Notes under the pieces: generated by a model
Seen by the model: only the letters and a program-made list of their open reading frames with translations
Database searches by the model: none
What the model was told of the DNA's origin: nothing
Made by a program: the position numbers and the translations under genes
DNA from: Candidatus Bathyarchaeia archaeon
GTDB taxonomy: Archaea; Thermoproteota; Bathyarchaeia; Bathyarchaeales; Bathycorpusculaceae
Direction of reading: 5' to 3'
Length of the DNA stretch: 19,792 nucleotides
Assembly: GCA_050010755.1 (NCBI GenBank)
Contig: JBEKKK010000008.1
Location: forward strand, 1-19,792
Shown: positions 4,529-19,470 of the stretch, in pieces
How positions within the stretch are numbered: position 1 is the stretch's first letter
How the letters are laid out: every line of letters starts with the position of its first letter

Positions 4529-5041
4529 TTATCCTTCCGTTCTTCTGATATACTCGATTTTCTGTTTTGTCCTGTTCTCTACCGACAAAGCCGTTATGAA
4601 AGGTTCCCCAAATTCATTGGAAACCTGCTCCCTCTCAGTCCGCAGCAGACCCTTCTTCTCGACAGTAAATGCGCAACCGCTGAAAAGGCCCGTTATAGCT
4701 ACCTTGTCATCCCCGGCAACGTCGAGGTCGGCCAAGTACTTTACCAGAATGCTAGTGCCCGCATCGTCTTCGAGATAGAAATACGTCGCCGAGGCCATCG
4801 ACTCCACAGTTTTTGGCCCGCTCATGAAACCCCAAGTCTGCACCGTCGTCTGATCCGTCTCATCGATGCTGACCACACCCTTCACTTGACCCTCGACACT
4901 CACGGCTTTTGTATGGTACTGCTGTTGATGATGAAGAAGCTCGAGAACGCTTAACTTCACAGGCGACAATTCTGATGCCATCTTTCCTAGTTCATTCCAA
5001 GCGAAAGCTGGAAACTTCATGCTAAAATCTTTTGTTGACAC
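4529..5041 (-). CDS. Hypothetical protein, probable OB-fold
   Basis: KAVSVEGQV...FYLEDDAGTSILV...GDDKVAITG pattern; GGGTGA RBS and TATA-like box upstream. Confidence 0.7.
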   Translation of the reverse strand: MSTKDFSMKFPAFAWNELGKMASELSPVKLSVLELLHHQQQYHTKAVSVEGQVKGVVSIDETDQTTVQTWGFMSGPKTVESMASATYFYLEDDAGTSILVKYLADLDVAGDDKVAITGLFSGCAFTVEKKGLLRTEREQVSNEFGEPFITALSVENRTKQKIEYIRRTEG

Positions 5042-5456
5042 GACAAATCACCCGTTAATTGCATCATCCGTAGAACTATATATAACTTCAAGCACGCGCT
5101 AAGCCAAATTAGCTCAAATCTCAGGCGACGCTGAACGCAAATTTTTAACCTACTCATACAGGCTCAATTGATTTTGGGAATATGGATGTCTTAGTCAGCC
5201 AAGAGCGCGTGCTGTTCAAGAAACGGAAGTGAATGAAAAATGGGCCGGGAGAGGTTTGAACATGGCCTAACTTGGAGAGGTCTCCCGCACAATTCCCTTT
5301 TTTTGTGTACCCCGCTGATGCTTTTAGATACAGAGTCAATGAATCGTTGGGCGTGGTGGGCAATTGAGCATAGAGGCGCGCGACTTAGAACAGTGAACTG
5401 CAAGGATCAGAAGTCTTATATTTAGAGCATTGGAACAACCAGTTTGGCGAAAAATC

Positions 5457-6080
5457 ATGTTAAAATCTGAGAATTCAACTCCTATGCCTTCCGCACCTCC
5501 TATTCCTCCCCCATTAGGTGCAACGCCCAAGAGTCGTATGAAGCTTATCATTGCTTCCATACTCATAATCGTCGTTGTCATCGCGGCCGTTCTAGGTTTC
5601 TGGCTGTTGAGATCTGGAGGAGGAAACCAGTCATGGATTTTTAAAGGGGCCTACGCGAACTTTCAGGGACAGGAAACACTAGCAGGCTTGGGTTACACTC
5701 TGAACATGACGATTCACATGGAAGTCTTGGGCTTCAACAGCACGGAAGTGGAGATATTCTCAAACACTACCTCGGAAACAGGGTTAGGAACGCCCTTCAG
5801 CTACAATTATACATCGTGGATGCTTCGCACCAGCGCTAACGACTTCAACGTCGAAGGCGGAAATTTGACTAACAGCTATGACACAACCGTCACATTGAGC
5901 AACTTGGGGAAACGCAACTGCATAGCCTATGAATACTCGATCTCGGGAATAAATGAGACCATGACAGTATACGTTGACAAAACAGTAGACTTTCCAGTCG
6001 AGTGGAGCGTGACCTCCACAGGAACCCCCAGCCTCAACTTTGACGTCACTCTAGTATCAACGAACATACCTGGCCTGTAG
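5457..6080 (+). CDS. Membrane-anchored extracellular protein
   Basis: ORF 5430..6080, ATG at 5457 preferred. Pro-rich N-terminus, single TM, Thr/Asn-rich beta domain ending TNIPGL. Confidence 0.8.
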   Translation: MLKSENSTPMPSAPPIPPPLGATPKSRMKLIIASILIIVVVIAAVLGFWLLRSGGGNQSWIFKGAYANFQGQETLAGLGYTLNMTIHMEVLGFNSTEVEIFSNTTSETGLGTPFSYNYTSWMLRTSANDFNVEGGNLTNSYDTTVTLSNLGKRNCIAYEYSISGINETMTVYVDKTVDFPVEWSVTSTGTPSLNFDVTLVSTNIPGL

Positions 6081-6321
6081 TTGACGCGTGCTAACGCTCC
6101 CTTCCCTTAACTCCGCTCTCTCAAAATCCTGTCTTCTCCTCGATGGCCAAATGCAGAGGCATCAGGTACTTTGCAAATTGATTTCGGAGCAACCCCGCGG
6201 GCTAAGCCTTGTGGAAAGATCTTTCATATCAGCGCAAGCCGTACTGGTTTTAGAACAGGCTGTTCTAATGCTTGGCATTAAGTCGAGGCAAGACACATTA
6301 ATTATTCGAGGTGCTCCGAGA

Positions 6322-6720
6322 GTGGTTCCTGTTAGGGAGGCACAAAAACGTAGCATGTTGATTGTAGTTATTGCCATCGCATCAGCTTTTGTTGTGATCG
6401 TTCCATTGTTTGGCGTGTTTGGTTTTCCACTTTATCCTGTTCCTGTGCCGGTGACCGTTGATGAGCTCAATGCGAATCCAGGCTTCTGGGTTGGAAGAAC
6501 AGTAATTGTTGAAGGACAAATCAGATTCATGCTCTCAATTCCGGAAGACAAACTAAAATTTCTTCTCGTGCTTCGTTCGGAAGATGGAATCATCGGAATT
6601 GACTTTAAAAACCCAGGCTTCAGCGTGTATGACCAGAACGTCACAGTCATAGGAATAGTCAAACGTACGTTGATCTATGAAGCGTACTATCTGGAAGCCT
6701 ATGTATTTTTCAAAAAGTAG
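6322..6720 (+). CDS. Membrane-anchored OB-fold-like protein
   Basis: GAGGTG RBS (6308-6313) before GTG 6322; TM then VTVDEL..P..WVGRTVIVEG...NVTVIG. The upstream part of ORF 6088..6720 looks non-coding. Confidence 0.7.
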   Translation: MVPVREAQKRSMLIVVIAIASAFVVIVPLFGVFGFPLYPVPVPVTVDELNANPGFWVGRTVIVEGQIRFMLSIPEDKLKFLLVLRSEDGIIGIDFKNPGFSVYDQNVTVIGIVKRTLIYEAYYLEAYVFFKK

Positions 6721-6892
6721 GAAGACGGGTCGAAACCGTGCCTAGCCCTCGAGCGCGCCTGGTGGACTGGTAATAATCGACCTTCTCACTCATTAGCGCT
6801 AGAAAATTACAAAAAACTACTAAACTCTAGCCCCGAAAAAAGTGGGGGGTTTGGCCTAGACTTTGCCAAGTCTATGCGTAGCGCGTGCCGTG

Positions 6893-7474
6893 CTAGGCGT
6901 GGCTTTCGAAGTTTCTGGCTACCAGTGTGACGTCTTCCATGTTGACTGTGCCATCGCCGTTGATGTCTGCAGCAGGGTTCCAGTTTGGACCGCCTGGAGT
7001 AGAGCCGAATGCTCTGGCAACCAACGCAATGTCCCTCAGGTCGACTACTCCGTCACCATTGACATCGCCCAGAAGTTTGATTGTGACGTTCCCGTCGGAG
7101 AGTGTGGTCGAGCCCGTGGGTATCGTTGCGACTGCTGTAAGCGTGTAGTTTTGGTAGGGGACGCCCTCAGTGTTCCACGTGAATGTGAACGTCAAGCTCT
7201 GTCCAACGCCCAACGACAGTCGGTACGTGTTCACGCTCTCGGCGGCTGTCACGTTGTAGTAGACGGTGACTGACACGGCGGGTTCATTGAAATCTCCGAC
7301 GTTCTTGACCGTGACGTTGATTGTGAGTGTTCCTCCTCGGTAGACCCATGTAGTGCTGGCTGTTAAGTTCGTCACCATGACTTCATGGATACCAGTCTCG
7401 GAAGCGCGGGCGCTAAAGAGGGGCAAAACCATCAACAACAAAAGCAAAATCACTATTGAGCTAAGCTGCTTCAT
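6893..7474 (-). CDS. Secreted CARDB (Ig-like) plus type I dockerin domain protein
   Basis: AAGGAG RBS before ATG 7474; signal peptide; INVTVKNVG CARDB motif; GDVNGDGVVDLRD and ADINGDGTVNMED Ca-binding loops. Confidence 0.9.
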   Translation of the reverse strand: MKQLSSIVILLLLLMVLPLFSARASETGIHEVMVTNLTASTTWVYRGGTLTINVTVKNVGDFNEPAVSVTVYYNVTAAESVNTYRLSLGVGQSLTFTFTWNTEGVPYQNYTLTAVATIPTGSTTLSDGNVTIKLLGDVNGDGVVDLRDIALVARAFGSTPGGPNWNPAADINGDGTVNMEDVTLVARNFESHA

Positions 7475-7755
7475 TTCTCCTTTCTCCGTGCAACAAATGA
7501 TGGACAATTCAAAGAATTAACATTTGTGGAACGCTCTTCTATAACATATTACAGCACAGCCCACGCTCTTGAGCGCGCTTTCCAAGACTCACAATGTTTT
7601 AGTCGCTAAGGTACGGTACTCTGATTAGAAACACCTGTCGTAATGTTGAGAGCTTGCGTTTTGGCCCCTTATTCCGGTTGCGCGCGCAATCAGTCTGCGC
7701 GTTGCGCCAGAACATCTTTGCACAAGTCTTATCTGTTTGTTGAACTACGTATAAA

Positions 7756-9438
7756 ATGGAGAAGGGGAAGATGCGGAAGGTATTTTCTGGATTAGTTATG
7801 CTTATGCTTCTGGTCGGCACGTTAGCCGCGGGGTTTAAGATTCAACCAGCAAGTGCGGACAATGTTGATTGGTGGCCAATGTTTCATCACGACCTCAGCC
7901 ACTCGGGAACTTCAACATCAACAGCCCCAACCACAAACAACACCCTCTGGACATACACGACAGGCAGCTATGTGTGGTCCTCTCCTGCCGTTGTCGGCGG
8001 TCTCGTCTACGTTGGATCTGCTGATGATAAGGTATACTGCCTGAACGTTGCTACCGGATCGTTCGTCTGGAGCTACATGACAAATGGCTCTGTGTATTCT
8101 TCTCCTGCCGTTGTTGGTGGCCTGGTCTACATAGGGTCGTTGGACAGGAATGTCTACTGCCTGAATGCAACTGACGGAACGTTCGTCTGGAGCTACACGA
8201 CAGGAGGCCCGGTGGAGTATTCTTCTCCTGCCGTTGTTGGCGGTCTGGTCTACGTAGGATCTTATGATTATAGGGTATATTGCCTGAACGCTGCTACCGG
8301 AGCGTTCGTCTGGAGCTACCTGACAGGCAGCTATGTGTGGTCTTCTCCTGCTGTCGTTGGTGGCCTGGCCTACGTAGGATCTGCTGATCATAACGTTTAC
8401 TGCCTGAACGCCGCAACTGGAGCGCTCGTCTGGAACTACACCACAGGCAACTGGGTGGAGTCTTCTCCTACAGTTGTTGGTGGCCTCGTCTACGTCGGAT
8501 CAGTAGATAATAAGGTATACTGCCTGAACGCTGCTACCGGAGCCTTCGTCTGGAGCTACTTGACAAATGCCACGGTTCAGCCTTCTCCTGCCGTTGCTAG
8601 CGGCCTAGTCTATGTGGGATCTAATAATGATAATATTTACTGCCTGAACGCTACTACCGGAGCGCCCGTCTGGAGCTACATGACAGGCGGCTATGTACAG
8701 TCTTCTCCTGCCGTTGCTAGCGGCTTAGTCTATGTGGGATCTAGTGATGATAATGTTTACTGCCTGAACGCTACTACCGGAGCGCCCGTCTGGAGCTACA
8801 TGACAGGTAACGTGGTGCGGTCTTCTCCTGCCGTGGCCAACGGAGTAGTTTACGTAGCATCACAAGATGACAATATCTACGCTATCAGCAGCGGTGTTCT
8901 ATTAAGCGTCGGCTCGAACGTCACGGTTTCTCCGACAAACAACCTTAACCTGACCTTCGCGAACGTTACAGCCGCGGGCATTGCAACCGCGAGCGGAACG
9001 CCGACTGTTCAAGCGCCCGTTCTGAACAACACCGTGGGATTATACTACGTCATCAACGTAATGGCCAGTTTTTCTGGCAACGTGACGGTGAGCCTAGCCT
9101 TTGACGGGTCAAACATGACGCAACAACAGAAAAACAGCCTGACTATGGTGCAGTACACGCCGATAGTGGGCGACGTCCAATCCCCGTTCGGCACGGTTAA
9201 CATGAGGGACATTGCGTATATTGCAAGGCACTTCGGGACAAACTCCGCGAGTCCCAACTGGGATCCCGTCTGTGACCTCAACAGTGACGGCAAAATAGAC
9301 ATGAAAGACATGGCCTTGGTGGCTAGGCACTTCGGGTTCACCGCCAGCTGGGTAATCATCACCACTTACGTTGACACGACGAGCAACGTCATATACGGAA
9401 GCACAACCCACTTCTCGTTCATAGGAATACACTCGTGA
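7756..9438 (+). CDS. Secreted PQQ-like beta-propeller protein with C-terminal beta domain containing a dockerin
   Basis: Signal peptide, WWPMFHHD, 8 x ~40-aa repeats, dockerin (GDV..FGTVNMRD / DLNSDGKIDMKD), C-terminal TTHFS. Start may be ATG 7771. Confidence 0.92.
   Translation: MEKGKMRKVFSGLVMLMLLVGTLAAGFKIQPASADNVDWWPMFHHDLSHSGTSTSTAPTTNNTLWTYTTGSYVWSSPAVVGGLVYVGSADDKVYCLNVATGSFVWSYMTNGSVYSSPAVVGGLVYIGSLDRNVYCLNATDGTFVWSYTTGGPVEYSSPAVVGGLVYVGSYDYRVYCLNAATGAFVWSYLTGSYVWSSPAVVGGLAYVGSADHNVYCLNAATGALVWNYTTGNWVESSPTVVGGLVYVGSVDNKVYCLNAATGAFVWSYLTNATVQPSPAVASGLVYVGSNNDNIYCLNATTGAPVWSYMTGGYVQSSPAVASGLVYVGSSDDNVYCLNATTGAPVWSYMTGNVVRSSPAVANGVVYVASQDDNIYAISSGVLLSVGSNVTVSPTNNLNLTFANVTAAGIATASGTPTVQAPVLNNTVGLYYVINVMASFSGNVTVSLAFDGSNMTQQQKNSLTMVQYTPIVGDVQSPFGTVNMRDIAYIARHFGTNSASPNWDPVCDLNSDGKIDMKDMALVARHFGFTASWVIITTYVDTTSNVIYGSTTHFSFIGIHS
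7945..8885 (+). repeat. About 8 x 120-bp coding tandem repeats (propeller blades)
   Basis: Recurring tcttctcctgccgttg...tactgcctgaacgc...gtctggagctac; 8581-8700 and 8701-8820 are nearly identical. Confidence 0.9.
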
Positions 9439-9525
9439 AATGCAGGAGGAACACCCCGCGCTGCAAACTCTTAAGAGTACGCGTTAGATGTGTAAGATTG
9501 CCGTTTCCGTGGGCTGGGTTGATTC

Positions 9526-10662
9526 TTGAAGAAGTCTTTGGTAATTCTCGGAGCTGGATATGGCGGTTTGCTGACAGCGGTTAAACTTGAAGAGAAAGCA
9601 AAGCGTTTGAAAGATGTAGAGATTGTTCTCGTTGACCGCAATGATTATCATCAGTACCTGCATCTCGCCTACGAGATAGTCACAGGCGTCAAGAAAGTCT
9701 CCGATCTCACAATACCATTGTCCGAGTTGTTGAAGAAGCGAAAAATCCGGTTTCTACAGGCGAGTGTATATTCAATCGACTTTGCCGACAAACTAGTAAG
9801 GACCGACAAGGGCGACTTGCCCTACTGGGAACTCGTAATCGCGCTCGGAAGCGAACCGAACTATTGCCACATCAAAGGGGCTGAAGAACACTCCTTCTGC
9901 GTCAGCTCTGTAGAAGCAGCCGCGCAAATCAGGGACAACCTCAAGAAGACCCTCGCTCAGAAAAAGAAAAACACGATCGTGGTCGGCGGCGGAGGCTTCA
10001 CCGGCGTCGAGTTGGCAGGAGAAATCGTGGACGAACACAAATGCTGCGTCACGATAATCGAAGGCTCCAAAACCCTGCTTCCAACATGGAACATCCCAGA
10101 ATTCTCCAGAAAAGTAGCCAACGTCCTGACCGAAATGGGAGCCAAACTCATCCTCGGCAAATTCATCGCCGAAGTAAAACAGGACACCGTCGTCTTGAAT
10201 GATGGCAGCCAAGTTGAATGCTCTCTCTTCATCTGGACCGGAGGAGTACAAGGCTCCCATGTGACCGGCTGCAGCGGCATGAAGACCGAGAAAGGCAACA
10301 GGGTGAAGATCAACGAGTTCTGCGAAGCCGTCGGGTTTCCGGGCGTCTACGTAGTGGGCGACTGCGCCCTCGTGGTTGATCCCAAAACCGGAGAAACTCT
10401 TCCTCAGTGCGTTGAGATTGCCCTGCAACAAGCCGAAGTGGTAGCCCAGAACTTGTACGCGGATGTAACAAAAAACGAAAGAACCGTTTACATCCCCAAG
10501 TTCAGCGGGTTAATCCTAGCCGTGGGTGAGAAGTACGGCATTGGAAAGATTTCCGGAGTAAAGGTAGAGGGGCGACTTGCCCAAACGATTAAGACAATGA
10601 TCCATCTGCGCTACGTCTACGAAATAGCCGGCCTTGGAAAAGTACTCAAAGAAGCCACATAG
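9526..10662 (+). CDS. ndh: NAD(P)/FAD-dependent oxidoreductase, type II NADH dehydrogenase-like
   Basis: GAGYGG and GGGFTGVELAGE Rossmann motifs, LVIALGS, WTGGV, VYVVGD. Confidence 0.85.
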   Translation: MKKSLVILGAGYGGLLTAVKLEEKAKRLKDVEIVLVDRNDYHQYLHLAYEIVTGVKKVSDLTIPLSELLKKRKIRFLQASVYSIDFADKLVRTDKGDLPYWELVIALGSEPNYCHIKGAEEHSFCVSSVEAAAQIRDNLKKTLAQKKKNTIVVGGGGFTGVELAGEIVDEHKCCVTIIEGSKTLLPTWNIPEFSRKVANVLTEMGAKLILGKFIAEVKQDTVVLNDGSQVECSLFIWTGGVQGSHVTGCSGMKTEKGNRVKINEFCEAVGFPGVYVVGDCALVVDPKTGETLPQCVEIALQQAEVVAQNLYADVTKNERTVYIPKFSGLILAVGEKYGIGKISGVKVEGRLAQTIKTMIHLRYVYEIAGLGKVLKEAT

Positions 10663-10736
10663 ATGAGGCACACGCCAAAATCTCAATTCCCGAATCCAAA
10701 CTGGATTTTTATGTAACTTGAGACTAATTTGCAAGT

Positions 10737-11720
10737 GTGAAAATGAAAGCCATTGTGCGCACACGGTACGGTTCACCGGATGTTCTTCAACTCAAAGAGG
10801 TGCCGAAACCAGCTCCCAAGAACGATGAGGTACTCATAAAAATATATGCGACAACAGTAAACCGAACAGACTGTGCCTTCTTGAGAGGTAACCAATTCAT
10901 TAACAGACTTGTCAGCGGCCTCCTCCGACCGAAGAGAACGATATTGGGGAATGAGTTCGCCGGAGAAATTGAAGAAGTAGGCAAAGACGTCAAATCATTC
11001 AAGAATGCTGACCGTGTTTTCGGATTCAGCGGACTCAGGTTTGGCGCCCACGCCGAGTATATGACCATGCCCGAACAAGGCATACTTACTGCTATGCCAG
11101 CGAACATGACCTATGAAGAAGCCGCCCCAAGCACCGAAGGCGGACTCTATGCACTCAACGATATTAGAAAAGCAAACGTTCAAAGCGGACAAAAAGTCCT
11201 GATCAACGGCGCAACGGGCGCCATCGGTTCAGCAGCAGTCCAGCTTGCGAAATATTACGGTGCGGAAGTTACAGCGGTGTGCAACACCCGGAATGCAAAA
11301 CTAGTAAAATCTCTCGGAGCCGACAAGATAATCGACTACACACAGGAAGATTTCACAAAAAGCGGTCAAGACTATGATTTTGTTTTTGACGCCGTTGGCA
11401 AGAGTTCATTTGGCGCCTGCAAAAAACTGCTAAAACCAGGCGGAATTTATTGCTCAACCGACCTCGGTTTCATGTCGCAGAACCTATTCCTGACACTATG
11501 GACCTCAAAATTCGGCAGCAAAAAAGTCATATTTCCAATCCCAAAAGAACGAAAAGAAACCATCCTTTTCTTCAAAGAACTAATTGAGGCGGGAAAGTTC
11601 AGACCGATAATAGACAGACGCTATCCGCTGGAACAAATTGCCGAAGCCTACAGGTATGTCGAGGCAGGCCAAAAAACAGGAAATGTAGTCATAATTGTGG
11701 GACACGATGACAGAACCTAA
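10737..11720 (+). CDS. NAD(P)-dependent MDR-family (zinc-independent, quinone-reductase-like) oxidoreductase
   Basis: MKAIV...YGSPDVL, VLINGATGAIGSAAVQLAK, IIDRRYPLEQI, KTGNVVI. Start GTG 10737 or ATG 10743. Confidence 0.9.
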   Translation: MKMKAIVRTRYGSPDVLQLKEVPKPAPKNDEVLIKIYATTVNRTDCAFLRGNQFINRLVSGLLRPKRTILGNEFAGEIEEVGKDVKSFKNADRVFGFSGLRFGAHAEYMTMPEQGILTAMPANMTYEEAAPSTEGGLYALNDIRKANVQSGQKVLINGATGAIGSAAVQLAKYYGAEVTAVCNTRNAKLVKSLGADKIIDYTQEDFTKSGQDYDFVFDAVGKSSFGACKKLLKPGGIYCSTDLGFMSQNLFLTLWTSKFGSKKVIFPIPKERKETILFFKELIEAGKFRPIIDRRYPLEQIAEAYRYVEAGQKTGNVVIIVGHDDRT

Positions 11721-11764
11721 TAAAGCAACTTGTGCGGCAACACTGATTTCGGAACACGCACAAT

Positions 11765-11918
11765 CAACATGGAAATTCACAATGGTTTGTCACAATGCAA
11801 CATTATAATTAATGTCACAAACGTAGAGGCGAGGGGCGAAACGCAACATGGAAACCTTACAAAGCAACATTACATTGCAACATTATCAGTCTTAGTGACT
11901 TGTTTAGGACACAACATT
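11765..11918 (+). repeat. Cluster of short direct repeats (CAACAT x6, TGTCACAA x2)
   Basis: CAACAT at 11765, 11798, 11844, 11865, 11878, 11912; TGTCACAA at 11788 and 11813. Confidence 0.7.
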
Positions 11919-11934
11919 TATAGATGTTTTCTGA

Positions 11935-11995
11935 ATCAATTAATCAGTTGATTAAAAAAGCCTTTCTGCATCAGTTAATCAGTGAATTAAAAAAG
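11935..11995. promoter_or_regulatory. Two 26-bp direct repeats with palindromic TTAA-N8-TTAA cores (operator-like)
   Basis: ATCAATTAATCAGTTGATTAAAAAAG (11935-11960) and ATCAGTTAATCAGTGAATTAAAAAAG (11970-11995). Confidence 0.65.
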
Positions 11996-12027
11996 GGAAA
12001 GGCTCCAAATTCTCCGTTAAACTTTTA

Positions 12028-12043
12028 CGGAAAATGTTTTATG
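12028..12043 (+). promoter_or_regulatory. Putative BRE/TATA promoter for the structured RNA
   Basis: CGGAAAATG followed by TTTTATG, about 25 bp upstream of 12067. Confidence 0.5.
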
Positions 12044-12064
12044 CTCATTACAACATATTAGCGT

Positions 12065-12148
12065 TTGGTGTCTAGGGCTCGTTCAAGCACGGGTACTCCG
12101 TCTTACATACGGGGCAACTATGCCAACGGGTGCAACCCTAGACACCAA
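12065..12148 (+). ncRNA. Cloverleaf tRNA-like structured RNA candidate
   Basis: 13-bp closing stem 12065-77/12136-48; arm CTCGT/ACGGG; arm CTCCGT/ACGGGG with 7-nt loop CTTACAT; weak third arm; ends ACCA. Confidence 0.6.
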
Positions 12149-12179
12149 TTATGTCGGTTTGTGGTGTTCTGGAAGGTCG

Positions 12180-12223
12180 GTTTACTTCTGGTTTACTTTG
12201 CGTTTACTTTCTGTTTACTATAC
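12180..12223 (+). repeat. 4 x 11-bp tandem repeat GTTTACTnnnn
   Basis: GTTTACTTCTG GTTTACTTTGC GTTTACTTTCT GTTTACTATAC. Confidence 0.9.
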
Positions 12224-12368
12224 CTACAGCGCGCGCTATTCTTAATAAGTCTTACTAATTTCTGAACAAAACTTTTTTCCATGGAAACTGTTTAGTTTTT
12301 TGTTAAGTTTTTGGTTTGGAAAAATCTTAAATCTGCACAGCTTAGAAAGTAGAATTGAGAGAAAAGGT

Positions 12369-12845
12369 TTGGTTCCAAACAATGAAGAGACCAAGATTAT
12401 TGATGAAGTAGTGGCGTATATCAAAAAGAAGTATGGCAAATATGCAACCATTAAATTTGAAGTCTTTGAACCACTAACTCCAGAGTGGAAAAGTAAATTC
12501 AAGCATCCTCTTGGCGGATATGCTTGGGGCGACAACTGGACTAATTTTCATATTAATTTAACAAGATGTAAAGACAAAAAAGCGTTCTCTGAACTTGTTT
12601 TCCATGAAATCTATGAAAATATAGTCCATGCTGGACATGAAATAGTTGTTCCAGAAGAAAGACGATATATTGAAGAAGAATTGAAAGTCAAACTTGATAA
12701 ATGGGAACCTCTCCAAGATGAAATGATTAGAACACTTTATTATGTAGATAAAAAAATGTTAGAAGATTCTTTCAAAAATTGTGGAGAACAATCGAAAACT
12801 CCACAAGAGATAAATCAACGAGCAAAAGAACTTGGGTTTTTCTAG
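12369..12845 (+). CDS. Hypothetical protein with zincin-like metallopeptidase-type motif
   Basis: ORF 12300..12845; likely TTG start 12369 after promoter GAAAAATCTTAAAT. LGGYA...FHEIYENIVHAGHE. Confidence 0.65.
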   Translation: MVPNNEETKIIDEVVAYIKKKYGKYATIKFEVFEPLTPEWKSKFKHPLGGYAWGDNWTNFHINLTRCKDKKAFSELVFHEIYENIVHAGHEIVVPEERRYIEEELKVKLDKWEPLQDEMIRTLYYVDKKMLEDSFKNCGEQSKTPQEINQRAKELGFF

Positions 12846-12944
12846 TTTTCGTCATGCGACACAAAAGGCTCTAGTCAAGCTGAAAAAAACCAATACCAAA
12901 AAGCCTATTATCTGAGGGAAAATCATAGGTTTTACTAGGTAGTC

Positions 12945-13682
12945 ATGTCCCGAACTAAAAAACTCCTTACCATCGGAATACTGATTACAATAGTAGGTGT
13001 GATAGTGTACTTTTCTCCAACGATATCGTCCTATTTTCAAAGTTCCTCTTCTAATTCTTCAAATAATCCTAGTGCTTCTTTCACAACACTGATGATTAGA
13101 GCACCGTATAGCGGGCATGAAGAAAATTTTACCACTGTTGACTTCGGTGACACGGAATATAATTTTCTTTATGGTTCGGGATGGCTTGCCGTTTATGCTC
13201 CTCTTCAAGCAGAGTATCCGATTTCATACCCAGAAGTTGGGGACACTTACAACGCCTTTGGTTTGGAGATAAAAATAGAGAATGTCAGTTCAGACTATCT
13301 CTCCGATTATGTCATATTTGGAGTCAAACCTACGGTCACTAATTATATGTATTCTACATACCGTTACACAGAAGTTAATCTCACTCTTGAACAGAGTCAA
13401 CCAATTCAGTATGGAACAGTGCCTTTAACGAACTACAGCGTAACAGTGAGTATTAGTAGTGGTATAATCAACGAAACAAATCAGTACACATTTACATACA
13501 CCAATGCTCCCTCTGGAACCTATGGTGCAACATTGGTTGTGAGTAACTCTTCTCAATCTAAACAATATGAGGCTTATGTTGGGTCATTCGTTGCGGGGGC
13601 TGAAACAGATTTCAATATTGAAATCGGAGTTTACAAAGCAGATGCAAATAATATGATAATCTATGTGAAACCTCTCTATTGA
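12945..13682 (+). CDS. Membrane-anchored extracellular protein with two similar beta-rich halves
   Basis: N-terminal TM, Ser/Asn linker, halves ending FGLEIKI...GVKP and FNIEIGV...YVKP. Confidence 0.8.
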   Translation: MSRTKKLLTIGILITIVGVIVYFSPTISSYFQSSSSNSSNNPSASFTTLMIRAPYSGHEENFTTVDFGDTEYNFLYGSGWLAVYAPLQAEYPISYPEVGDTYNAFGLEIKIENVSSDYLSDYVIFGVKPTVTNYMYSTYRYTEVNLTLEQSQPIQYGTVPLTNYSVTVSISSGIINETNQYTFTYTNAPSGTYGATLVVSNSSQSKQYEAYVGSFVAGAETDFNIEIGVYKADANNMIIYVKPLY

Positions 13683-13774
13683 CTCTCTCGGAAAACGGAA
13701 AACCAAAAAGAGGGAAGAAGGGTAAGGAAAGGCGCGCGCTACAAACTAGGGGGGTTCAAAAATGAGGGAAAAGA

Positions 13775-14221
13775 ATGTTAGCTGAGAAAATTCTAACGGA
13801 AAAGGAGCAAGAAGACCATTTAAACAATAATTGGAAGGTCAACCCAAAGGTAACCTTTACATTTCCAGAAGGGCTAAGAATACGGACAGGGCATTTGCTT
13901 GAACGCATTGTTGTTAAGGATTCAATCGAGCCATCAGTCAATTATTGGAACATTCTAGATTTTATTAAGTTTCAACATGACCCTGATAATCTTTGGCTAA
14001 GAATAACATACTATCGCTATTTGAAAGACGAGATTGTCAGAACTAAGAAAGGTAAAATCACAAACAAAAGATGGATTTTCGCTGGGCAAACATCGATTTC
14101 AGACCCGATAAGTGCATTTGAGAGATTGTTTGTGAAGGCAATAAAAGAAGACAAAAGTGGAAAATGGATACGACCTCTTTTCAAAAATATCATGAAGGAA
14201 TGCCATAAGGAATTAGAATAG
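13775..14221 (+). CDS. Hypothetical basic soluble protein
   Basis: 148-aa ORF with GAGG RBS; LRITYYR...WIFAGQTS segment; family not recognised with confidence. Confidence 0.7.
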   Translation: MLAEKILTEKEQEDHLNNNWKVNPKVTFTFPEGLRIRTGHLLERIVVKDSIEPSVNYWNILDFIKFQHDPDNLWLRITYYRYLKDEIVRTKKGKITNKRWIFAGQTSISDPISAFERLFVKAIKEDKSGKWIRPLFKNIMKECHKELE

Positions 14222-14685
14222 GCTTATAGAATAGAAAAGGCTCTTAGTCAAGTTGAAAGAGGAAAGTGACCGAGCGAATTAACAGCTTTTGTTAAGCCAC
14301 TAACCTAAGATTCCCATGATGGACCCACACCATGAAGATAGGGACCGTATTCTACTGGTTTTCGTCCATCTACAGACAAGCGGGGGAGTTTGCGGCACGG
14401 TTTAGGCTTGTTTTCCTGTTCTGAGCCTGTCGGACGAGTTCGACCTATGGTATGTAAATCATTATTTAGTTGTTTATTCCATGCTTTTGGCTGTTATCAA
14501 TCGAACAAAGAACGAAACCATGCTTTATTGGATTGTCCTACCTAGTACATAGGCGACTTTTTACGGATGGTATTTTTAGAATCAACAATTTAACTCTTTG
14601 AAAGGGCGCTTATACTCCACTTTCTACAGAGCCTTTCTACAGAAACTTGGATGCTAACACTTTTTGTTCTGGCTCTTGACCATGC

Positions 14686-15333
14686 TCAACCGTTGAATCT
14701 GGGTTTAGTGTCGAACCGTCCTCTAGGCTCAAACCGTGTCTTAGGTGCTGTCTCAGTGGCTTTCTCTGGTGTGCTCTGATGTTGATGTAAGTGGTTTAGT
14801 ATTGCTATAGCTGTTGGCTCTCTAGGACCAGAGTATTGGTCGAGAGTTGTTAATGATGTGCTTGACGGACCCGAAATTTTTCGTTTTCGTGGTTTGAGTC
14901 GTTGAGCTAGTGAGTAGAGTTTCGACTTGAATAAGTGTCGTATGAATGTTGCTCGGTTTGTTGTGTCGGCATGAACACCGACTTCGATTAGAACTATTCC
15001 GAGCTTTTTGATTTGTTGCTTTATGAAATCGGAGAAGAGAGCGAAGCTAACCACGAGAACCCAGAGCAATTTGTGAAAAGGGTCTTTCCGCTTGAAATAG
15101 TCGAGTTTGTTGAGCATTATTTTGTCGTTGAGGAAAGTTGTTTCTTTCGGATTGGTGCACTCGATTAAGGTTTTGTCTCGAATTACACCGTCAACAACAT
15201 TATGATTGTCGTTCGGGTAGATTGATGGATTAAAATTGTTGTGCTCGTACTGAGAACCCAGACCGCGCATTTCGAAAAACCGAGCTATGTACTTCTCAAA
15301 TGGAATTCCGTTAAGATACAAAGCTGTGTCCAT
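14686..15333 (-). CDS. PD-(D/E)xK superfamily nuclease, Mrr-catalytic-domain-like
   Basis: GIPFEKYIARFF helix, VDGV..., LIECT (K replaced by T), VLVVS...FS, GIVLIE; low-complexity C-terminal tail. Confidence 0.7.
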   Translation of the reverse strand: MDTALYLNGIPFEKYIARFFEMRGLGSQYEHNNFNPSIYPNDNHNVVDGVIRDKTLIECTNPKETTFLNDKIMLNKLDYFKRKDPFHKLLWVLVVSFALFSDFIKQQIKKLGIVLIEVGVHADTTNRATFIRHLFKSKLYSLAQRLKPRKRKISGPSSTSLTTLDQYSGPREPTAIAILNHLHQHQSTPEKATETAPKTRFEPRGRFDTKPRFNG

Positions 15334-15382
15334 TGTCGTTTTCTATCCATTTCCTAGCTTGTTTCACTATAATAGACCAATA

Positions 15383-15407
15383 GCACCGTTGCTTTTAAGC
15401 TTTATGC
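15383..15407 (-). promoter_or_regulatory. BRE/TATA promoter copy 1 (nuclease gene)
   Basis: Minus strand GCATAAAGCTTAAAAGCAACGGTGC, about 50 bp upstream of ATG 15333. Confidence 0.65.
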
Positions 15408-15412
15408 CAGAA

Positions 15413-15495
15413 TTAAGCTATTGATTAAAAAAGCGGCATGTATTGTTGTTCTACAGCTAAACCGACCTCAATTTGCGAATTAATCAATAGCTTAA
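15413..15495. promoter_or_regulatory. Perfect 16-bp inverted repeat, operator-like
   Basis: TTAAGCTATTGATTAA (15413-15428) and TTAATCAATAGCTTAA (15480-15495). Confidence 0.7.
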
Positions 15496-15505
15496 ACTTT
15501 TGGTC

Positions 15506-15618
15506 AAAAAAGCTCTCTTCAACGGGGATTTGGTGAATGGACAGAAGAGCGGGGCGATGTGAAGATTTGAACGAAGCTCAAAGCCTAAACAAGCTATCCC
15601 CGCTCTAAATGGACATCT
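15506..15618 (-). ncRNA. Candidate ~110-nt sRNA with complementarity to the nuclease mRNA leader
   Basis: Lies downstream of promoter copy 2; long hairpin 15546-15606 with G-U pairs only on the minus strand; T6 run at 15506-15511. Confidence 0.55.
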
Positions 15619-15628
15619 AATGCTATGT

Positions 15629-15653
15629 GCATCGTTGCTTTTAAGCTTTATGC
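15629..15653 (-). promoter_or_regulatory. BRE/TATA promoter copy 2 (24/25 identical to copy 1)
   Basis: Minus strand GCATAAAGCTTAAAAGCAACGATGC; no sizeable ORF follows. Confidence 0.65.
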
Positions 15654-15723
15654 TCTGAGAGGCTCGAATTCTGTCTTATTCTTGAAAATAGGCTCATTTT
15701 AAACACTTTTTGATATGTAGAAG

Positions 15724-15738
15724 CGAAAGCTTTAAATA
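15724..15738 (+). promoter_or_regulatory. BRE/TATA promoter of the rightward operon
   Basis: CGAAAGC followed by TTTAAATA, about 40 bp upstream of ATG 15777. Confidence 0.75.
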
Positions 15739-15776
15739 CCCAAATTGGGCTTAATTATCATAAATAGGCGATAATC

Positions 15777-16100
15777 ATGACGGAAAACGACAAAGTAACG
15801 ACATTCAGCCTCTATTCGTCCGATGCGGAGATTATCCGCAAGTTCTTCGGACGAACACACACCGACATGACTCAAGTTTTTCACGAACTAGCGGTTGAGC
15901 TACAGAAAGCAGATAACGATTTAGATTCTGGAAAACTTTTGTACTTGTGGTCTTGGGATGTCCTTCACGGCATGGTCCATCTTTACATCGGGAAAGCTCC
16001 GAGAGTATGCAACATAAGTGACCTTTGTCCTACTGCACAAAAGTTCTATCGAGCACAGAAAGAAAAAGAAGATGCAGAACTTAAAGGTGAAAAAAGTTGA
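15777..16100 (+). CDS. Probable ribbon-helix-helix (CopG-like) regulator
   Basis: N-terminal alternating strand VTTFSL, then two helices (DAEIIRKFF; DMTQVFHELAVEL); first gene of the operon. Confidence 0.55.
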   Translation: MTENDKVTTFSLYSSDAEIIRKFFGRTHTDMTQVFHELAVELQKADNDLDSGKLLYLWSWDVLHGMVHLYIGKAPRVCNISDLCPTAQKFYRAQKEKEDAELKGEKS

Positions 16101-16771
16101 GTGACGAAAATAATCCGAAATCCGAGAAGAAAGGCTTACACATAACTGTAGATGACCGTGCGCTCCAAATCATGAGTGATGCAAATTCCGAGCTAAAGCA
16201 AGAGAACAAGCAACTCAGTGAAGCTCTAACTCAGAGTGCCGAAGCTGAAAAGGTTTTTGACGATTTGAAGAATCGACTCAAATCCGACTATGCCAAATTG
16301 GGAGAAGTCGCTCCCGACATAAACACGAGCGAAGAATTCGATTTAGCTATTCAGCAACTCGGAAAACTCAAACAGTCGAAAGTCGGTGCACCGAGCGGCA
16401 CACCTAACACTCTAAACGAGCGGCAACTCGGACGCTCTCAAGACAATTCGGACCTCATGACTCGGAAATTTAATTCTCCCGAAGAAATGATTAGCTTTCT
16501 CCGTGCTCAGAAGACGAAAGAATCTGAGGCAATTCTAAACAAGATGTGGCAGAAAACTCTTGAGGCTCAGAAAAGTGGAAATATTGACCTCACTTACAGA
16601 AGGAACCCGACTGAGGAAAAAGGCGATGGAAATCCCGTAGAAAAGGTAATTAGCGGTGAAATAGACAACTCGGACGAATCGGAGCTAGAATCTTGGGGAG
16701 TTCGCAAAAAGACGCATAAATCGAAGATGTCACACACCGATAAAGAAGGTAATCCGATAGGACAATCTTAG
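16097..16771 (+). CDS. Hypothetical coiled-coil protein
   Basis: GGTGA RBS, TTG start overlapping the previous stop, charged helical sequence. Confidence 0.8.
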   Translation: MSDENNPKSEKKGLHITVDDRALQIMSDANSELKQENKQLSEALTQSAEAEKVFDDLKNRLKSDYAKLGEVAPDINTSEEFDLAIQQLGKLKQSKVGAPSGTPNTLNERQLGRSQDNSDLMTRKFNSPEEMISFLRAQKTKESEAILNKMWQKTLEAQKSGNIDLTYRRNPTEEKGDGNPVEKVISGEIDNSDESELESWGVRKKTHKSKMSHTDKEGNPIGQS

Positions 16772-16896
16772 AGAAGAAAGTTAAGAAACTAACTATCCCT
16801 GTCATCTTTCGAAGAGAAGCTCTGAATCACGAAACCCTAAAAACAATCTCAGCTTACTTCGAGTCGAGCGTCACTTTTGAAGTCTCGAAAGACGAA

Positions 16897-17181
16897 ATGT
16901 ACGAGAATCACACTCTCACGCTTTTGCTGGGTCACAGTGGCTATATTGATAGTGCCGAAACACCGCACTTACAAAGAATGCTCAGAGTTTTTCTTGAGGA
17001 CGGAAATGGTTCGATTCAAGAAATTTCTTGGTGTGCTATTCACGGCAAAACAGAAGGTGTGAAGGTCACACGCTCAGAAGAGGAAATCAAGCTCACACCG
17101 AAACAAGTAGTCGAGAAGCTCAAGACGAACAAATACAAATTGTTCGATAACGAGAAGCTTGAGCTTTCAAATCTAGGTTAA
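16897..17181 (+). CDS. Hypothetical protein; frame open upstream to 16753
   Basis: 94-aa ORF inside the operon, with 48 extra open codons that lack a canonical start. Confidence 0.65.
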   Translation: MYENHTLTLLLGHSGYIDSAETPHLQRMLRVFLEDGNGSIQEISWCAIHGKTEGVKVTRSEEEIKLTPKQVVEKLKTNKYKLFDNEKLELSNLG

Positions 17182-17185
17182 AGAG

Positions 17186-17446
17186 GTGATATGTACGAGC
17201 AACAATAACGAAACGGGAAAAGACATCGAGCTAAACATCGATGAGGTCAAGCGCAAACAGAGAGCTAAGAAAGAACCTCAGAATCCGATAGTGGACGAAA
17301 GACTTCACGGCGGCGATAAGATTCAGCAAATTGACATCGAGAAAGAGGTTAGCTATCCTTTCACAGATGTGACGAAGCAAAAGAATCGTCCTAAGAGAGC
17401 ACCGAGTCGGACGCTCCCGTGGGAGACAGAAACGAAAACTGAATAA
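17186..17446 (+). CDS. Hypothetical charged protein (start uncertain)
   Basis: GAGGTGA RBS at 17183-17189 overlaps the called GTG; in-frame ACG at 17195. Confidence 0.65.
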   Translation: MICTSNNNETGKDIELNIDEVKRKQRAKKEPQNPIVDERLHGGDKIQQIDIEKEVSYPFTDVTKQKNRPKRAPSRTLPWETETKTE

Positions 17447-17550
17447 AATCAGTACGAAGACACGAAGGTTTCTTCATGATGGTCGTATTGACAGTTTCGG
17501 ACATGTTTCCTTCGTGCCTTCTTAATCACAGTAATTAAAAGGTGAAAAAT

Positions 17551-18174
17551 ATGGTGAAAAGAGTAACGAAAGAGCAACAGAAAAAGCTCGAAGACGAAGA
17601 AAACGAAGAAAAGATAGAGGTCACTATTCAAGAAAACAGTGAAATCGAAGAATCCCAGAGCACTAGCGAAATCGACACGAAAGAACAAATCGAGCAAGAG
17701 CTTGACTATCAGCAAGAGCTTGAGAAATGGTTTAAGGACCTAGAGCAAAAGCATCCTATCGAGTATGTGAACGAGCTTAGAAAGAAGATTAACGCTCAGA
17801 GAGAGCTTAAAGCATGGTTCGGTTCTGAGCAATGGCTCAAGACTTTTAGAAACTTACAACTCAAGCAACTCGAAACTATCGACAAACAGAACGAAGAAAT
17901 CACTCAAAAGGTATTAGAGTACACCGAAAAATCACAAGAGCGTATCGAAAAGTTTCTTGAAGATTTTGACGCTCGTGACGAACAGCTTAACAAAAAACTT
18001 CTTGGGTTGCTGGAAAGAAGCGAAGAACGAGATAGAAAATATTACGAACGACTCAACTCAGATTTGGATTTGGACATTAAAAGAGACAGTGAATGGTCCG
18101 AGAAAACCCTAGAGCTTGCGAAGTTGAAAAAAAAGGTTTACGAAGCTCAACTCGAAAACGAAAGGCGAAAGTAG
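17551..18174 (+). CDS. Hypothetical E/K/Q-rich coiled-coil protein
   Basis: AGGTGA RBS before ATG 17551; helical charged composition. Confidence 0.8.
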   Translation: MVKRVTKEQQKKLEDEENEEKIEVTIQENSEIEESQSTSEIDTKEQIEQELDYQQELEKWFKDLEQKHPIEYVNELRKKINAQRELKAWFGSEQWLKTFRNLQLKQLETIDKQNEEITQKVLEYTEKSQERIEKFLEDFDARDEQLNKKLLGLLERSEERDRKYYERLNSDLDLDIKRDSEWSEKTLELAKLKKKVYEAQLENERRK

Positions 18175-18176
18175 AA

Positions 18177-18371
18177 TTGCCTTACTGTAGCTACTGCAAA
18201 AGAAAAATTCCGAGACATCTAGCTACTTATGTTTCTGGAAAAGTCTTCTGCAATCTTGACCACTCACAGAAATACGAGCGAAAGCAAGAGCGCATTAAGA
18301 AACGACTCGAACGAGAAGCTCAAGCTCAACGAGAACAAATGAGTATTCTAGTGTGGACGGGAGAAGATTGA
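18177..18371 (+). CDS. Small zinc-finger protein (CxxC...FCxxxH)
   Basis: GGCGA RBS, TTG 18177; YCSYC...GKVFCNLDH. Confidence 0.65.
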   Translation: MPYCSYCKRKIPRHLATYVSGKVFCNLDHSQKYERKQERIKKRLEREAQAQREQMSILVWTGED

Positions 18372-18688
18372 GAACCGTAACATGTGCCAATTGTGGAAAA
18401 ATCTTCGAGACTACTCAACGCAATAAGAAGTTTTGCTCAGAAGCATGTTCTCGTGACGCTTATGAAAAGAGAATCCGTGTCGAACCGCTTAGTAAAATCT
18501 GTTTGTGGTGTAAACAAGAATTCAAGACTCATGCACCGTTCTGTCGTTTTTGCTCGACTGAGTGCAATAATAGCTTTCGGTCCGTCCGAGACTCAATCAT
18601 GAAACGCTATAGTTTCGAACCTCAGAATCGTGACCACGAGCTTGAACGACTCGAAAAAGAAGGAAAGAACTATGTCGGAACAAATTAA
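18368..18688 (+). CDS. Double TRASH/treble-clef-type zinc-finger protein
   Basis: CANCGKIF...KFCSEAC and CLWCKQEF...RFCSTEC; TTG start overlaps the previous stop. Confidence 0.75.
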   Translation: MRTVTCANCGKIFETTQRNKKFCSEACSRDAYEKRIRVEPLSKICLWCKQEFKTHAPFCRFCSTECNNSFRSVRDSIMKRYSFEPQNRDHELERLEKEGKNYVGTN

Positions 18689-19073
18689 AGTTCTCAAGTG
18701 CTCAAGATGTCATCGAACCGTGACCGTGCCTTCGAGCTACGATTTCAAGACTTGTGCTGAATGTCGAGCGGATATGAAAAGACGCTACGAAGAAGACGAA
18801 GAAGAGCTTAGTGAAGAATGTCGAGCTTTCAGAGAGCATCCAGAGGACCCTTTCTTATACGATTCTCACTTACCGTATTGTAAGAAGTGTAAGAGATGGT
18901 TAGCTAACCGTCAACGAGCACAAGAGGAAAACGACTATTGGGCACAAGAGATTCATAAAAGTCTGGGTGAATGCGGGGGAGAAAACGGTTTAGGTTGGCA
19001 AGATTGTACGGACCAAAACGACAAAGATATTCTTGACGCAATCGGACCCAAAAAGAAAGAGGGAGAAGAATAA
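18672..19073 (+). CDS. Zinc-finger protein with acidic regions
   Basis: CSRC...CAEC and H...CKKC motifs; ATG 18672 overlaps the upstream gene. Confidence 0.7.
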   Translation: MSEQIKVLKCSRCHRTVTVPSSYDFKTCAECRADMKRRYEEDEEELSEECRAFREHPEDPFLYDSHLPYCKKCKRWLANRQRAQEENDYWAQEIHKSLGECGGENGLGWQDCTDQNDKDILDAIGPKKKEGEE

Positions 19074-19080
19074 CGGTCAC

Positions 19081-19338
19081 GAGCTTAGGGTTTGCTGTTT
19101 CACCTCACTTACTTCTAGGCTCAAGACTTTTGGCTCGTAGTTTTGGGCGACATCTACGAGCCACTATTAACAATTGTTGTTTTCACAGTCACGGACGGAC
19201 GGTCCGAGCAAATTGAGGATGACTCTTGAGGTCACTACGAGAATCCCAAATCTCAAATCAGTCATGTCAAGAGGACGAACGGTTAAGTGAAGAGTTACGA
19301 ACTTCACAATTTAACCGACTCGAACCGCTCTCCATGAC
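19081..19338 (+). other. Intergenic multi-hairpin region
   Basis: Stems 19081-90/19113-22, 19131-40/19154-63, 19192-206, 19220-34, 19280-92/19302-17, 19261-66/19333-38. Confidence 0.55.
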
Positions 19339-19388
19339 ACTTAACGAAAAATAGAAAAAAGTCGGAAAGAAGAGGGAGATAAGGACCG

Positions 19389-19466: not shown

Positions 19467-19470
19467 GATT

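Follow-up and report, generated by a model that had tools for sequence, protein, structure and literature searches.

Introduction

The described systems closest to the locus analysed here include small regulatory RNAs, cargo genes and recombination sites of mobile elements. The C4 RNA (P1/P7) and the CI RNA (P4) look tRNA-like at their ends, and Rfam includes a C4 family. The prophage 'moron', a concept from bacterial phages, is a self-contained cargo unit made up of promoter, gene and terminator, and the boxes of integron attC sites follow the consensus RYYYAAC / GTTRRRY. Phage-induced regulatory RNAs of the C4/CI kind are RNase P substrates according to one part of a published account (PMC4919922). 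In a genome of Candidatus Bathyarchaeia archaeon, an initial annotation had proposed a tRNA-sized cloverleaf RNA with a Val(UAC)-like anticodon loop, and had offered as interpretations a tRNA mimic or decoy, a highly diverged tRNA, or a new non-coding RNA (ncRNA) that may serve as an integration target. We found that the locus folds as a stable rod-like hairpin close to the left end of an integrated element, downstream of an exact copy of a host promoter block, and we compared it with these systems and with several other kinds of RNA and DNA hairpin.

Results

The window, that is, the whole stretch of 19,792 nt that was analysed, is an entire contig (C8) of a 93%-complete genome of 2.19 Mb in 8 contigs. 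The stretch is present in 10 public runs of peat and wetland origin, and the Logan copies of the hairpin stretch show zero variation. GC content within the window is 48.5% at 1-11720 vs. ~41% at 12369-19792. Ordinary genes lie to the left of this drop (beta-propeller, dockerin and CARDB proteins, an oxidoreductase and a zinc-type dehydrogenase). To its right, a Pfam family was found in none of the ten largest ORFs, NCBIfam and PADLOC gave no match at E<=0.001, and PHROGs returned an HNH-like match for a zinc-finger ORF (18353-18688) and one weak match of unknown function, and nothing more.

Positions 11842-11885 (plus strand) are the last unit of a host-wide dispersed repeat with ~47 further matches in the genome, and the final 10 nt of this unit, TGCAACATTA (11876-11885), form the proposed crossover core (attL). 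In uninterrupted copies of the repeat, ...GCAACATTACATTGCAACATTA is joined straight to CATCTGATGTAAAGAAAAAAA..., the core TGCAACATTA leading directly into CATCTGATGTAAAG; in the window the repeat breaks off at 11885, unrelated sequence follows, and the missing half is found 3' of a tyrosine-recombinase-like gene. This gene crosses the junction between the window contig and contig C2 at either C2 end and is then followed by TGCAACATTA-CATCTGATGTAAAG; the last 74 nt of the window contig are identical to both C2 ends, which gives two candidate right ends. Because the repeat is interrupted at 11885 and its missing half comes after the recombinase gene, the element spans 11886 to the second TGCAACATTA. 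Its in-window part is 11886-19792 (plus strand, GC ~41%), with 1.1-1.3 kb more in C2, which gives a length of ~9.2 kb by our own count via the C2 5' end and ~180 nt less via the C2 3' end. Other metagenome contigs that carry the repeat part ways with the window exactly after 11885, into CATCTGAT....

The boundary was also found in an independent assembly. Logan contig X3, assembled from another run, covers 8778-13301 (4524 nt) with 0 differences; contig X5 spans 11920-12277 and contig X4 only the 3' arm of the hairpin, both without differences in the hairpin stretch. Since X3 runs across the element boundary, the junction is not an assembly artefact. The right part of the window is collinear with two islands in contig C3 (16.4-25.8 kb and 118.6-126.5 kb), and a fourth similar island lies in contig C1 (195.8-205.6 kb). 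The hairpin is part of this ~9.2-kb integrated mobile element and not of the host chromosome proper.

Against the Pfam phage integrase family, the recombinase-like protein scored below the cut-off (E 0.0017, 18.6 bits vs. 27.1 required), as did a paralogue (E 0.0088), and the residues R, K, H-x-x-R and Y are kept in the expected order in four recombinase paralogues. Among the best 120 of 365 database relatives, 4 contain a Pfam integrase domain and 7 carry the source name integrase or XerD. Sequence searches of the PDB with the protein returned nothing relevant, and its structure model was poor (mean pLDDT 46). We take the protein for a divergent tyrosine recombinase, judging by its sequence. 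A 14-nt sequence, ATTTATAGATGTTT (11916-11929), is an inverted copy of a 14-mer beside the start of the recombinase gene (C2:1305-1318; 100% over 14 nt, E 0.008). In an excised circle, this inverted pair would flank the core at ~31 and ~34 nt, and its members are candidate binding sites for the recombinase or an accessory protein.

The hairpin starts 180 nt inside the left end of the element, and nothing from 12020-12170 recurs at the right ends in C2. The crossover core TGCAACATTA, which ends at 11885, has its second copy 3' of the recombinase gene, whichever of the two candidate right ends is considered. As core and duplicated sequence lie elsewhere, the hairpin is not the integration target for which it had been proposed.

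The hairpin is 85 nt long (12065-12149, plus strand), and both the structure and its high stability are real. A perfect 13-bp closing stem, TTGGTGTCTAGGG / CCCTAGACACCAA at 12065-12077 / 12136-12148, agrees with the initial annotation and is followed inwards by a 5-nt bulge (12131-12135), a 6-bp helix (12078-12083/12125-12130) and then two short helices that lead to an apical stem of 6 bp, with CUUACAU as its 7-nt loop (12096-12114). This apical arm, previously described with the loop CTTACAT, lies within the minimum-energy fold, and the outer helix is, as had been stated, 2 bp longer (15 bp) on the minus strand. G-U pairs had been advanced as an argument for the plus strand, which does not hold: the two strands fold alike (-39.7 / -39.6 kcal/mol), with 3 and 4 G-U pairs.

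Folded as a 96-nt stretch, the plus strand reached -41.3 kcal/mol (z -4.72) and the minus strand -40.1 kcal/mol (z -5.15), with 0 of 200 dinucleotide shuffles as good in either case, and the hairpin stretch folded with single-stranded DNA parameters gave z -5.17. The interior alone (12078-12135) was near chance on both strands (plus, z -1.69, 13/200 shuffles as good; minus, z -1.40, 19/200), so that the statistical signal is essentially that of the 13-bp arms. GC content is 54% in the hairpin and 55% in its interior, against 34-36% in the flanking spacer.

We also counted perfect inverted repeats with arms of at least 13 nt and loops of 20-90 nt. A script found 7 in the 2.19-Mb genome, 2 of them in the window contig, and by our own arithmetic ~2.3 are expected per genome and ~0.02 per 19.8-kb contig. 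The arm 13-mer has 2 exact matches in the genome, which are its own two arms, and 1 more at 1 mismatch vs. 2.6 expected. The element has a second perfect inverted repeat, at 15413-15495, whose arms are operator-like and which occupies the spacer between two divergently oriented ORFs; its interior folds weakly, and the whole fold amounts to -21.6 kcal/mol. These operator-like arms are a sign of inverted protein-binding sites at the DNA level in the element.

The cloverleaf that the initial annotation had drawn is not the favoured fold. It reached -31.2 to -32.3 kcal/mol as drawn and -34.5 kcal/mol with its helices enforced and the rest optimised, vs. -39.7 kcal/mol for the rod, which makes it 5-7 kcal/mol worse, and zero three-hairpin folds lay within 4 kcal/mol of the optimum. 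The third arm of the drawn cloverleaf has 2-3 bp. The reported ACCA near the 3' end is present at 12144-12147, with 78 nt from G12070 to A12147; it is paired with 12066-12069 inside the perfect stem and would be free only in an RNA that starts exactly at G12070. U8, the D-loop GG and the T-arm TTCRA are missing, again as described, the sole TTCAA lying at 12082 in the 'D-arm' position. At 12096-12114 the features of an anticodon arm are all found (6-bp stem, 7-nt loop CUUACAU, U33 and a purine at 37).

ARAGORN called 0 genes in the whole window and 0 in 11950-12250 at thresholds down to ps80; at ps70 it made two calls in that interval, both spurious, with other coordinates and anticodons. Rfam gave 0 matches in the window at gathering scores and, at E<=10, three weak matches in 11700-12500, none of them on the hairpin. 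Compared with 34 host tRNAs (the ARAGORN set with introns allowed), the region shared no words beyond 9-mers, and the host genome has a normal tRNA-Val(UAC). The negative ARAGORN and Rfam results, the disfavoured cloverleaf, the lack of similarity to host tRNAs and the ordinary host tRNA-Val(UAC) tell against the proposed tRNA mimic or highly diverged tRNA. A tRNA identity was rejected on the grounds that tRNA models fail to recognise the sequence, the rod is preferred to the cloverleaf and D-loop and T-arm signatures are absent.

Upstream of the hairpin lies promoter P1, GGAAAATGTTTTATGCTCAT (12029-12048, plus strand), which we read as a BRE and TATA box and which is an exact 20-nt copy of the block upstream of a host gene. 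The block is found at only two places in the genome; it is identical at C1:1198858 and in 4/4 other genomes of the genus, and at all five host loci a small zinc-ribbon gene begins with its ATG 29-30 nt (own count) further downstream, while both flanks of the block differ. The plus-strand promoter of the initial annotation is thereby upheld, as an exact copy of a genus-conserved host promoter block. Archaeal promoters have a usual TATA-to-start distance, and this distance, with the block ending 16 nt upstream of the hairpin, places the predicted start at ~12065-12070, the first bases of the stem. Rightward of the hairpin, the minus strand showed no promoter-like motif.

Two 33-nt direct repeats (11928-11995, plus strand, 88% identity) precede the promoter, and each contains an operator-like palindrome, TTAATCAGTTGATTAAAAAAG (11940-11960, with a variant at 11975-11995). 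The motif occurs in 5/5 genomes of the genus, where a reversed control pattern gave 0 matches, and it adjoins the left-end repeat cluster in the C1 and C3 sister islands. In the C1 island, operator and a similar promoter stand ahead of a protein gene and are there taken as its driver.

Downstream of the hairpin lie four GTTTACT repeats with exact 11-nt spacing (12180-12219, plus strand), whose function we assign by conjecture: they may be a U-rich tail part of the P1 transcript, phased DNA-binding sites, or both. Three T-runs follow within 12273-12312 (plus strand; T6 at 12273, T6 at 12296 and T5 at 12308). Archaeal transcription generally terminates at oligo-T, and on this basis the runs are likely terminators, candidates for closing the P1 unit. 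A second promoter-like motif, P2, GAAAAATCTTAAATCTGCACAGCTT (12319-12343, plus strand), has the same BRE/TATA pattern as P1 and stands before the next gene; 5 other sites in the genome share 18-22 nt of this motif. Given the succession of P1, T-runs and then P2 for the next gene, P1 appears to drive its own short unit of ~210 nt, which would apparently have the hairpin at its 5' end and the GTTTACT repeats in its tail.

The first protein gene of the element encodes 158 aa from TTG 12369 (12369-12845, plus strand) and has a conserved LTRC..FHE motif and no known family. The protein had no match in Pfam, NCBIfam or PADLOC and one weak match in PHROGs, to a family of unknown function. Seven genomes of another genus carry homologues with 55-70% identity (alignment A4), at 8 loci altogether; all of these genes begin at the equivalent codon, and the hairpin lies upstream in 0 of the 8.

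An ORF of 65-66 aa spans the P1 unit itself (12065-12265, plus strand), running from TTG 12065 or GTG 12068 to TGA 12265 and ending 8 nt before the first T6 run; the C-terminal half of its product is hydrophobic. A search of 5.8 billion proteins returned 0 homologues of this product and not even a self-match, which indicates that no gene was called there. Across 331 family genomes, the ORF was matched only weakly and by hydrophobic sequence, 9 times in all (E 5e-4 to 0.01; identity 31-55%), and in-frame stops interrupt 5 of these matches.

No collection searched yielded a second copy of the hairpin, which is a singleton. Neither of the two collinear C3 islands has it, nor does the C1 island at its left end, and a comparable hairpin was found at 0 of 8 other operator loci examined in the genus, downstream of which the best 90-nt folds ranged from -18 to -30 kcal/mol vs. 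-39.9 kcal/mol at the hairpin. With 12020-12170 as query, BLASTN against 60 relatives recovered the 20-nt promoter and nothing more; with 12055-12300, a search of 331 family genomes gave only matches of 17-42 nt, the best of them (E 4.5e-5) in the T-rich repeat part. A covariance model (R1), built from the single sequence, recovered only the hairpin itself from the genome of origin and had no match in 150 family genomes.

The stem pattern had 0 matches in viral contigs and 4 in metagenome contigs, namely the window's own contig and three unrelated perfect palindromes. The apical 19-mer had 0 matches in genome contigs and viral contigs, and the phage and plasmid collections gave no match to the hairpin. 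Neighbouring genes were also used as a route to relatives, and no relative of the hairpin was found either in genome contigs with the 158-aa protein or in viral contigs reached by a 181-aa reading of the same gene, alignment A2 or the recombinase alignment. The initial annotation had reckoned with homologues; none was found by BLASTN (331 genomes), R1 (150 genomes) or the viral, plasmid and metagenome scans. Literature searches for proviruses of Bathyarchaeia and for tRNA-like RNAs in archaeal viruses gave nothing specific.

Several other candidates were tried and rejected. A Y RNA was set aside on the grounds that the 93%-complete genome has no TROVE (Ro60) match, in a search whose control matched 2/14 control genomes, and that the hairpin has no Rfam match. 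For an archaeal C/D guide RNA, no RUGAUGA C box was present on either strand of 11980-12320, the only CTGA of the D-box type lying at 12262, and for an H/ACA guide RNA the ACA at 12142 is inside the perfect stem. A decayed zinc-ribbon gene left no trace in 11900-12400. For a CRISPR-repeat mimic, our own script found no array in the genome that could serve for comparison. A MITE or insertion-sequence end was rejected on the self-match alone in the genome (BLASTN and covariance model) and on arms found nowhere else beyond chance. The longest perfect complementarity between the hairpin and the rest of the element, the only kind of match scored, is 10 nt, and 133 of 200 shuffles reach at least 10; an antisense RNA of the C4/CI type was rejected for want of a family match and of target complementarity beyond chance.

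Discussion

We tentatively read the hairpin as a cargo non-coding transcription unit of the element, a possible explanation and the one that best accounts for four observations taken jointly: the promoter is an exact copy, the stem falls at the predicted start, terminators follow, and the sister elements lack the unit. In its favour, no open protein gene follows P1, the next gene has its own promoter-like motif and is set off by T6/T6/T5, and the hairpin is a GC island with z -4.7 and 0/200 shuffles as good. Several observations weigh on the other side: the interior is not better folded than shuffles; both strands, and single-stranded DNA, fold equally well; a singleton is also the expected look of a neutral or recent accident; complementarity to the element does not exceed chance; there happens to be a 66-aa ORF across the unit, open from the predicted start until shortly before the first T-run; and operator-like arms are seen in the other inverted repeat of the element (15413-15495). 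Of the interpretations first offered, the new ncRNA is thus the one that stands best, by virtue of the promoter copy and the terminator-like T-runs, and not by conservation of structure. The reading as an RNA gene is plausible and is founded on a promoter inferred from sequence.

If the unit is such a gene, it would be the first transcription unit after the left attachment site and would comprise the operator pair, the copied promoter, a rod-like hairpin of ~85 nt at or near the predicted start and a U-rich tail reaching to the oligo-T terminators, giving a transcript of ~210 nt, or of ~85 nt if trimmed to the hairpin. It may be a 'moron'-like non-coding RNA gene acquired by this one copy of the element. 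Pairing of the 5' and 3' ends would make for a stable RNA, which would act via a protein or RNA partner and whose role would probably be regulatory or protective for the element, for example by conferring immunity to related elements or by interfering with a host factor. The analysis establishes the inverted repeat and its stability, its place within the element, the promoter copy, the T-runs and the lack of the unit in sister elements; we infer transcription, the start and end of the transcript, RNA rather than DNA as the active form, and any function.

The main rival places the function in the DNA: the arms would be inverted sites for a dimeric or looping protein of the element, in control of P1 or P2, or the palindrome would serve replication or recombination as a structural signal formed in single-stranded or supercoiled DNA. 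We consider this doubtful. It would suit a significance that sits in the arms and not in the interior, the single-stranded DNA fold (z -5.17), the density of protein-site-like repeats in the region (operator pairs and four 11-nt-phased GTTTACT units) and the contig's one other long perfect inverted repeat, 15413-15495, whose arms are operator-like. However, outside the hairpin the genome contains the arm sequence no more often than chance predicts, which would imply a regulator with a single pair of sites, and the interior is GC-rich (55%) and prolongs the helix, unlike that of 15413-15495. The position of the stem exactly at the predicted start of a strong promoter would have to be coincidence, and the recombination core with its flanking 14-nt inverted sites lies 135-190 nt to the left. 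A further rival is a neutral origin, in which a recent inverted duplication by template switching made a functionless palindrome in the spacer and any P1 transcript is incidental. A singleton in every collection searched, absent from the sister islands and with no significant structure in its interior, is what such an accident would leave, and ~2 perfect repeats of this kind are expected by chance per genome (own arithmetic). Only ~0.02 are expected for the window contig, though, and this one falls on a GC island, has a conserved promoter copied exactly at the distance of a start site and is followed by terminator-like T-runs, and it shows no differences among independent Logan contigs (X3 and X5, and X4 for the 3' arm only); we judge a neutral origin improbable.

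Two further readings keep the transcript and change its nature. The unit could be a leaderless mRNA for a membrane peptide of 65-66 aa (TTG 12065 or GTG 12068 to TGA 12265), the hairpin then being coding sequence. From the predicted start, no stop interrupts the frame until 8 nt short of the first T6, and the C-terminal half is hydrophobic, yet T-rich sequence by itself yields hydrophobic codons, 5.8 billion proteins include no homologue, and of the 9 weak matches in 331 family genomes 5 have in-frame stops. A stem of -40 kcal/mol at the 5' end should moreover block leaderless initiation, and a period of 11 nt is not a multiple of 3, so that the repeats are kept at the nucleotide and not the protein level; we regard the peptide as very unlikely. 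Less credible again is a mimic of the tRNA acceptor, in which an RNA starting at G12070 would have an 8-bp stem, a discriminator A, a free CCA and a Val-like anticodon loop and would act as decoy or substrate for tRNA-processing or tRNA-cleaving enzymes. The sequence permits it: G12070 falls within the predicted start range and comes after a pyrimidine, and the apical loop CUUACAU fits U33 and a purine at 37. On the other hand, all the tRNA detectors used (ARAGORN and Rfam) fail, the cloverleaf is disfavoured by 5-7 kcal/mol, T-arm and D-arm identity and similarity to host tRNAs are lacking, and the ACCA is simply the end of an arm of a perfect palindrome. We give similarly little credence to the idea of an abundant minihelix RNA under the copied host promoter, with an acceptor-stem-like end (8 bp, A, CCA) and a valine-anticodon-like tip, that would be a decoy or competitive substrate for host tRNA-processing, CCA-adding or tRNA-cleaving defence enzymes.

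Should the RNA of the cargo unit prove to exist, it would join a very small number of candidate non-coding RNAs placed in a mobile element of Bathyarchaeia, for which we know of no cultured host-element system, and the exact promoter copy would be a clean case of an element borrowing a host expression signal. The value of the analysis is largely negative and contextual, in that it removed the tRNA and integration-target readings and fixed the boundaries of the element. The hairpin is an orphan feature, and the family of ~9-10-kb elements inserting into a dispersed host repeat may be of wider interest than the hairpin itself.

Set against the known systems, the hairpin shares with tRNAs its size (78-85 nt), paired ends, a 6-bp stem with a 7-nt loop that fits U33-NNN-R37 and an ACCA near the 3' end, but it is undetected by any model tried (Rfam and ARAGORN), folds as a rod and has no similarity to host tRNAs. 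Like MITEs and insertion-sequence ends, it is a short unit with 13-bp perfect terminal inverted repeats; unlike them, it is single-copy in the genome, with unrepeated arms and no target-site duplication in its flanks. The integron attC and the attP of CTX phage are likewise imperfect bulged hairpins of 60-140 nt inside a recombinase-bearing element, but by eye no RYYYAAC / GTTRRRY boxes are present at the ends of the hairpin stem, the crossover core is elsewhere, and with 13+6 paired bp the helix falls short of a two-arm recombinase site.

Among RNAs, the C4 RNA of P1/P7 and the CI RNA of P4 are comparable as short stem-loop RNAs of an integrated or temperate element that have their own promoter and lie in a control region, the hairpin RNA being predicted. 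They differ in that the hairpin has no Rfam match at E<=10 and no perfect complementarity beyond chance to target sites in the element, and in that the host is an archaeon and the element unrelated. Compared with prophage morons, the product of the unit behind promoter P1 is apparently non-coding and its expression is a prediction, whereas the arrangement is alike: a unit with its own predicted promoter, a short product and terminator-like signals, set between conserved modules near the end of the element, present in one element and absent from its close relatives, the sister elements.

Apparent insertion site and contig junction

A dispersed repeat of composite structure, with many CAACAT(T/G) motifs, was observed in the window at 11742-11885 and 1129-1207, and elsewhere in the genome on contigs C1, C2, C3, C4 and C7. 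The repeat comprises a part of ~75 nt and a 44-nt core, which lie ~100 nt apart in several copies, and the core alone had ~47 matches across the 2.19 Mb genome. The insertion point of ~9-10 kb elements with a divergent tyrosine recombinase appears to be TGCAACATTA, located inside this dispersed repeat. We saw four islands of such elements in this genome, with the island on C1 forming an exception in that its right end adjoins a tRNA gene instead of the repeat. By attaching at a dispersed repeat, such an element would gain many places in which to land. Among the products encoded on the host side are secreted proteins with beta-propeller (PQQ-like), CARDB and dockerin domains (3013-4347, 6893-7507 and 7756-9438).

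The window contig stops within a recombinase-like gene (19622-19792), for which either end of C2 (C2:1-1274 or the reversed 3′ end) offers a continuation. Copies of this gene at the two C2 ends are 97% identical, lie in inverted orientation and sit in ~1 kb inverted repeats (92% identity). We attribute the assembly break at this gene to the presence of two near-identical elements; the window contig would join C2 at one of its two ends, both of which are candidates.

Repeated motifs and gene content of the elements

An operator-like palindrome, TTAATCAGTTGATTAAAAAAG, occurs in the element at 11940-11960 and 11975-11995, and also forms the arms of the element's second perfect inverted repeat, which is 16 bp long (15413-15433 and 15480-15495) and sits in the spacer separating two divergently oriented ORFs. 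The palindrome was present in all five genomes of the genus (reversed control, 0 matches); within this genome, three islands carry it close to their left end. A different motif, AGCGCGCGCTAT (12227-12240), lies a short way 3′ of the four GTTTACT repeats of the hairpin unit; it also makes up the arms of two more long perfect inverted repeats (C1:953899-953989 and C1:233642-233734), with loops of 63 and 67 nt and AT-rich interiors.

Three islands of this genome have in common a conserved module of four genes (window 15777-18371, C3:20715-23418 and C3:118617-121298; 29-62% identity) with no assigned function, whose products are coiled-coil proteins of charged composition plus a zinc-finger protein. 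Searching viral contigs with one module protein (16097-16771) returned no relatives. The element's first protein gene (12369-12845) encodes a 158-aa product that carries the invariant motif LTRC..AF.ELVFHE and matched no known family, and is 55-70% identical to proteins from seven genomes of another genus (eight loci, L008-L015). At four of these loci the homologue comes after a small zinc-ribbon gene; in the window the 158-aa gene comes after the hairpin unit, and the unit's promoter is a copy from a zinc-ribbon gene different from the one at those four loci.
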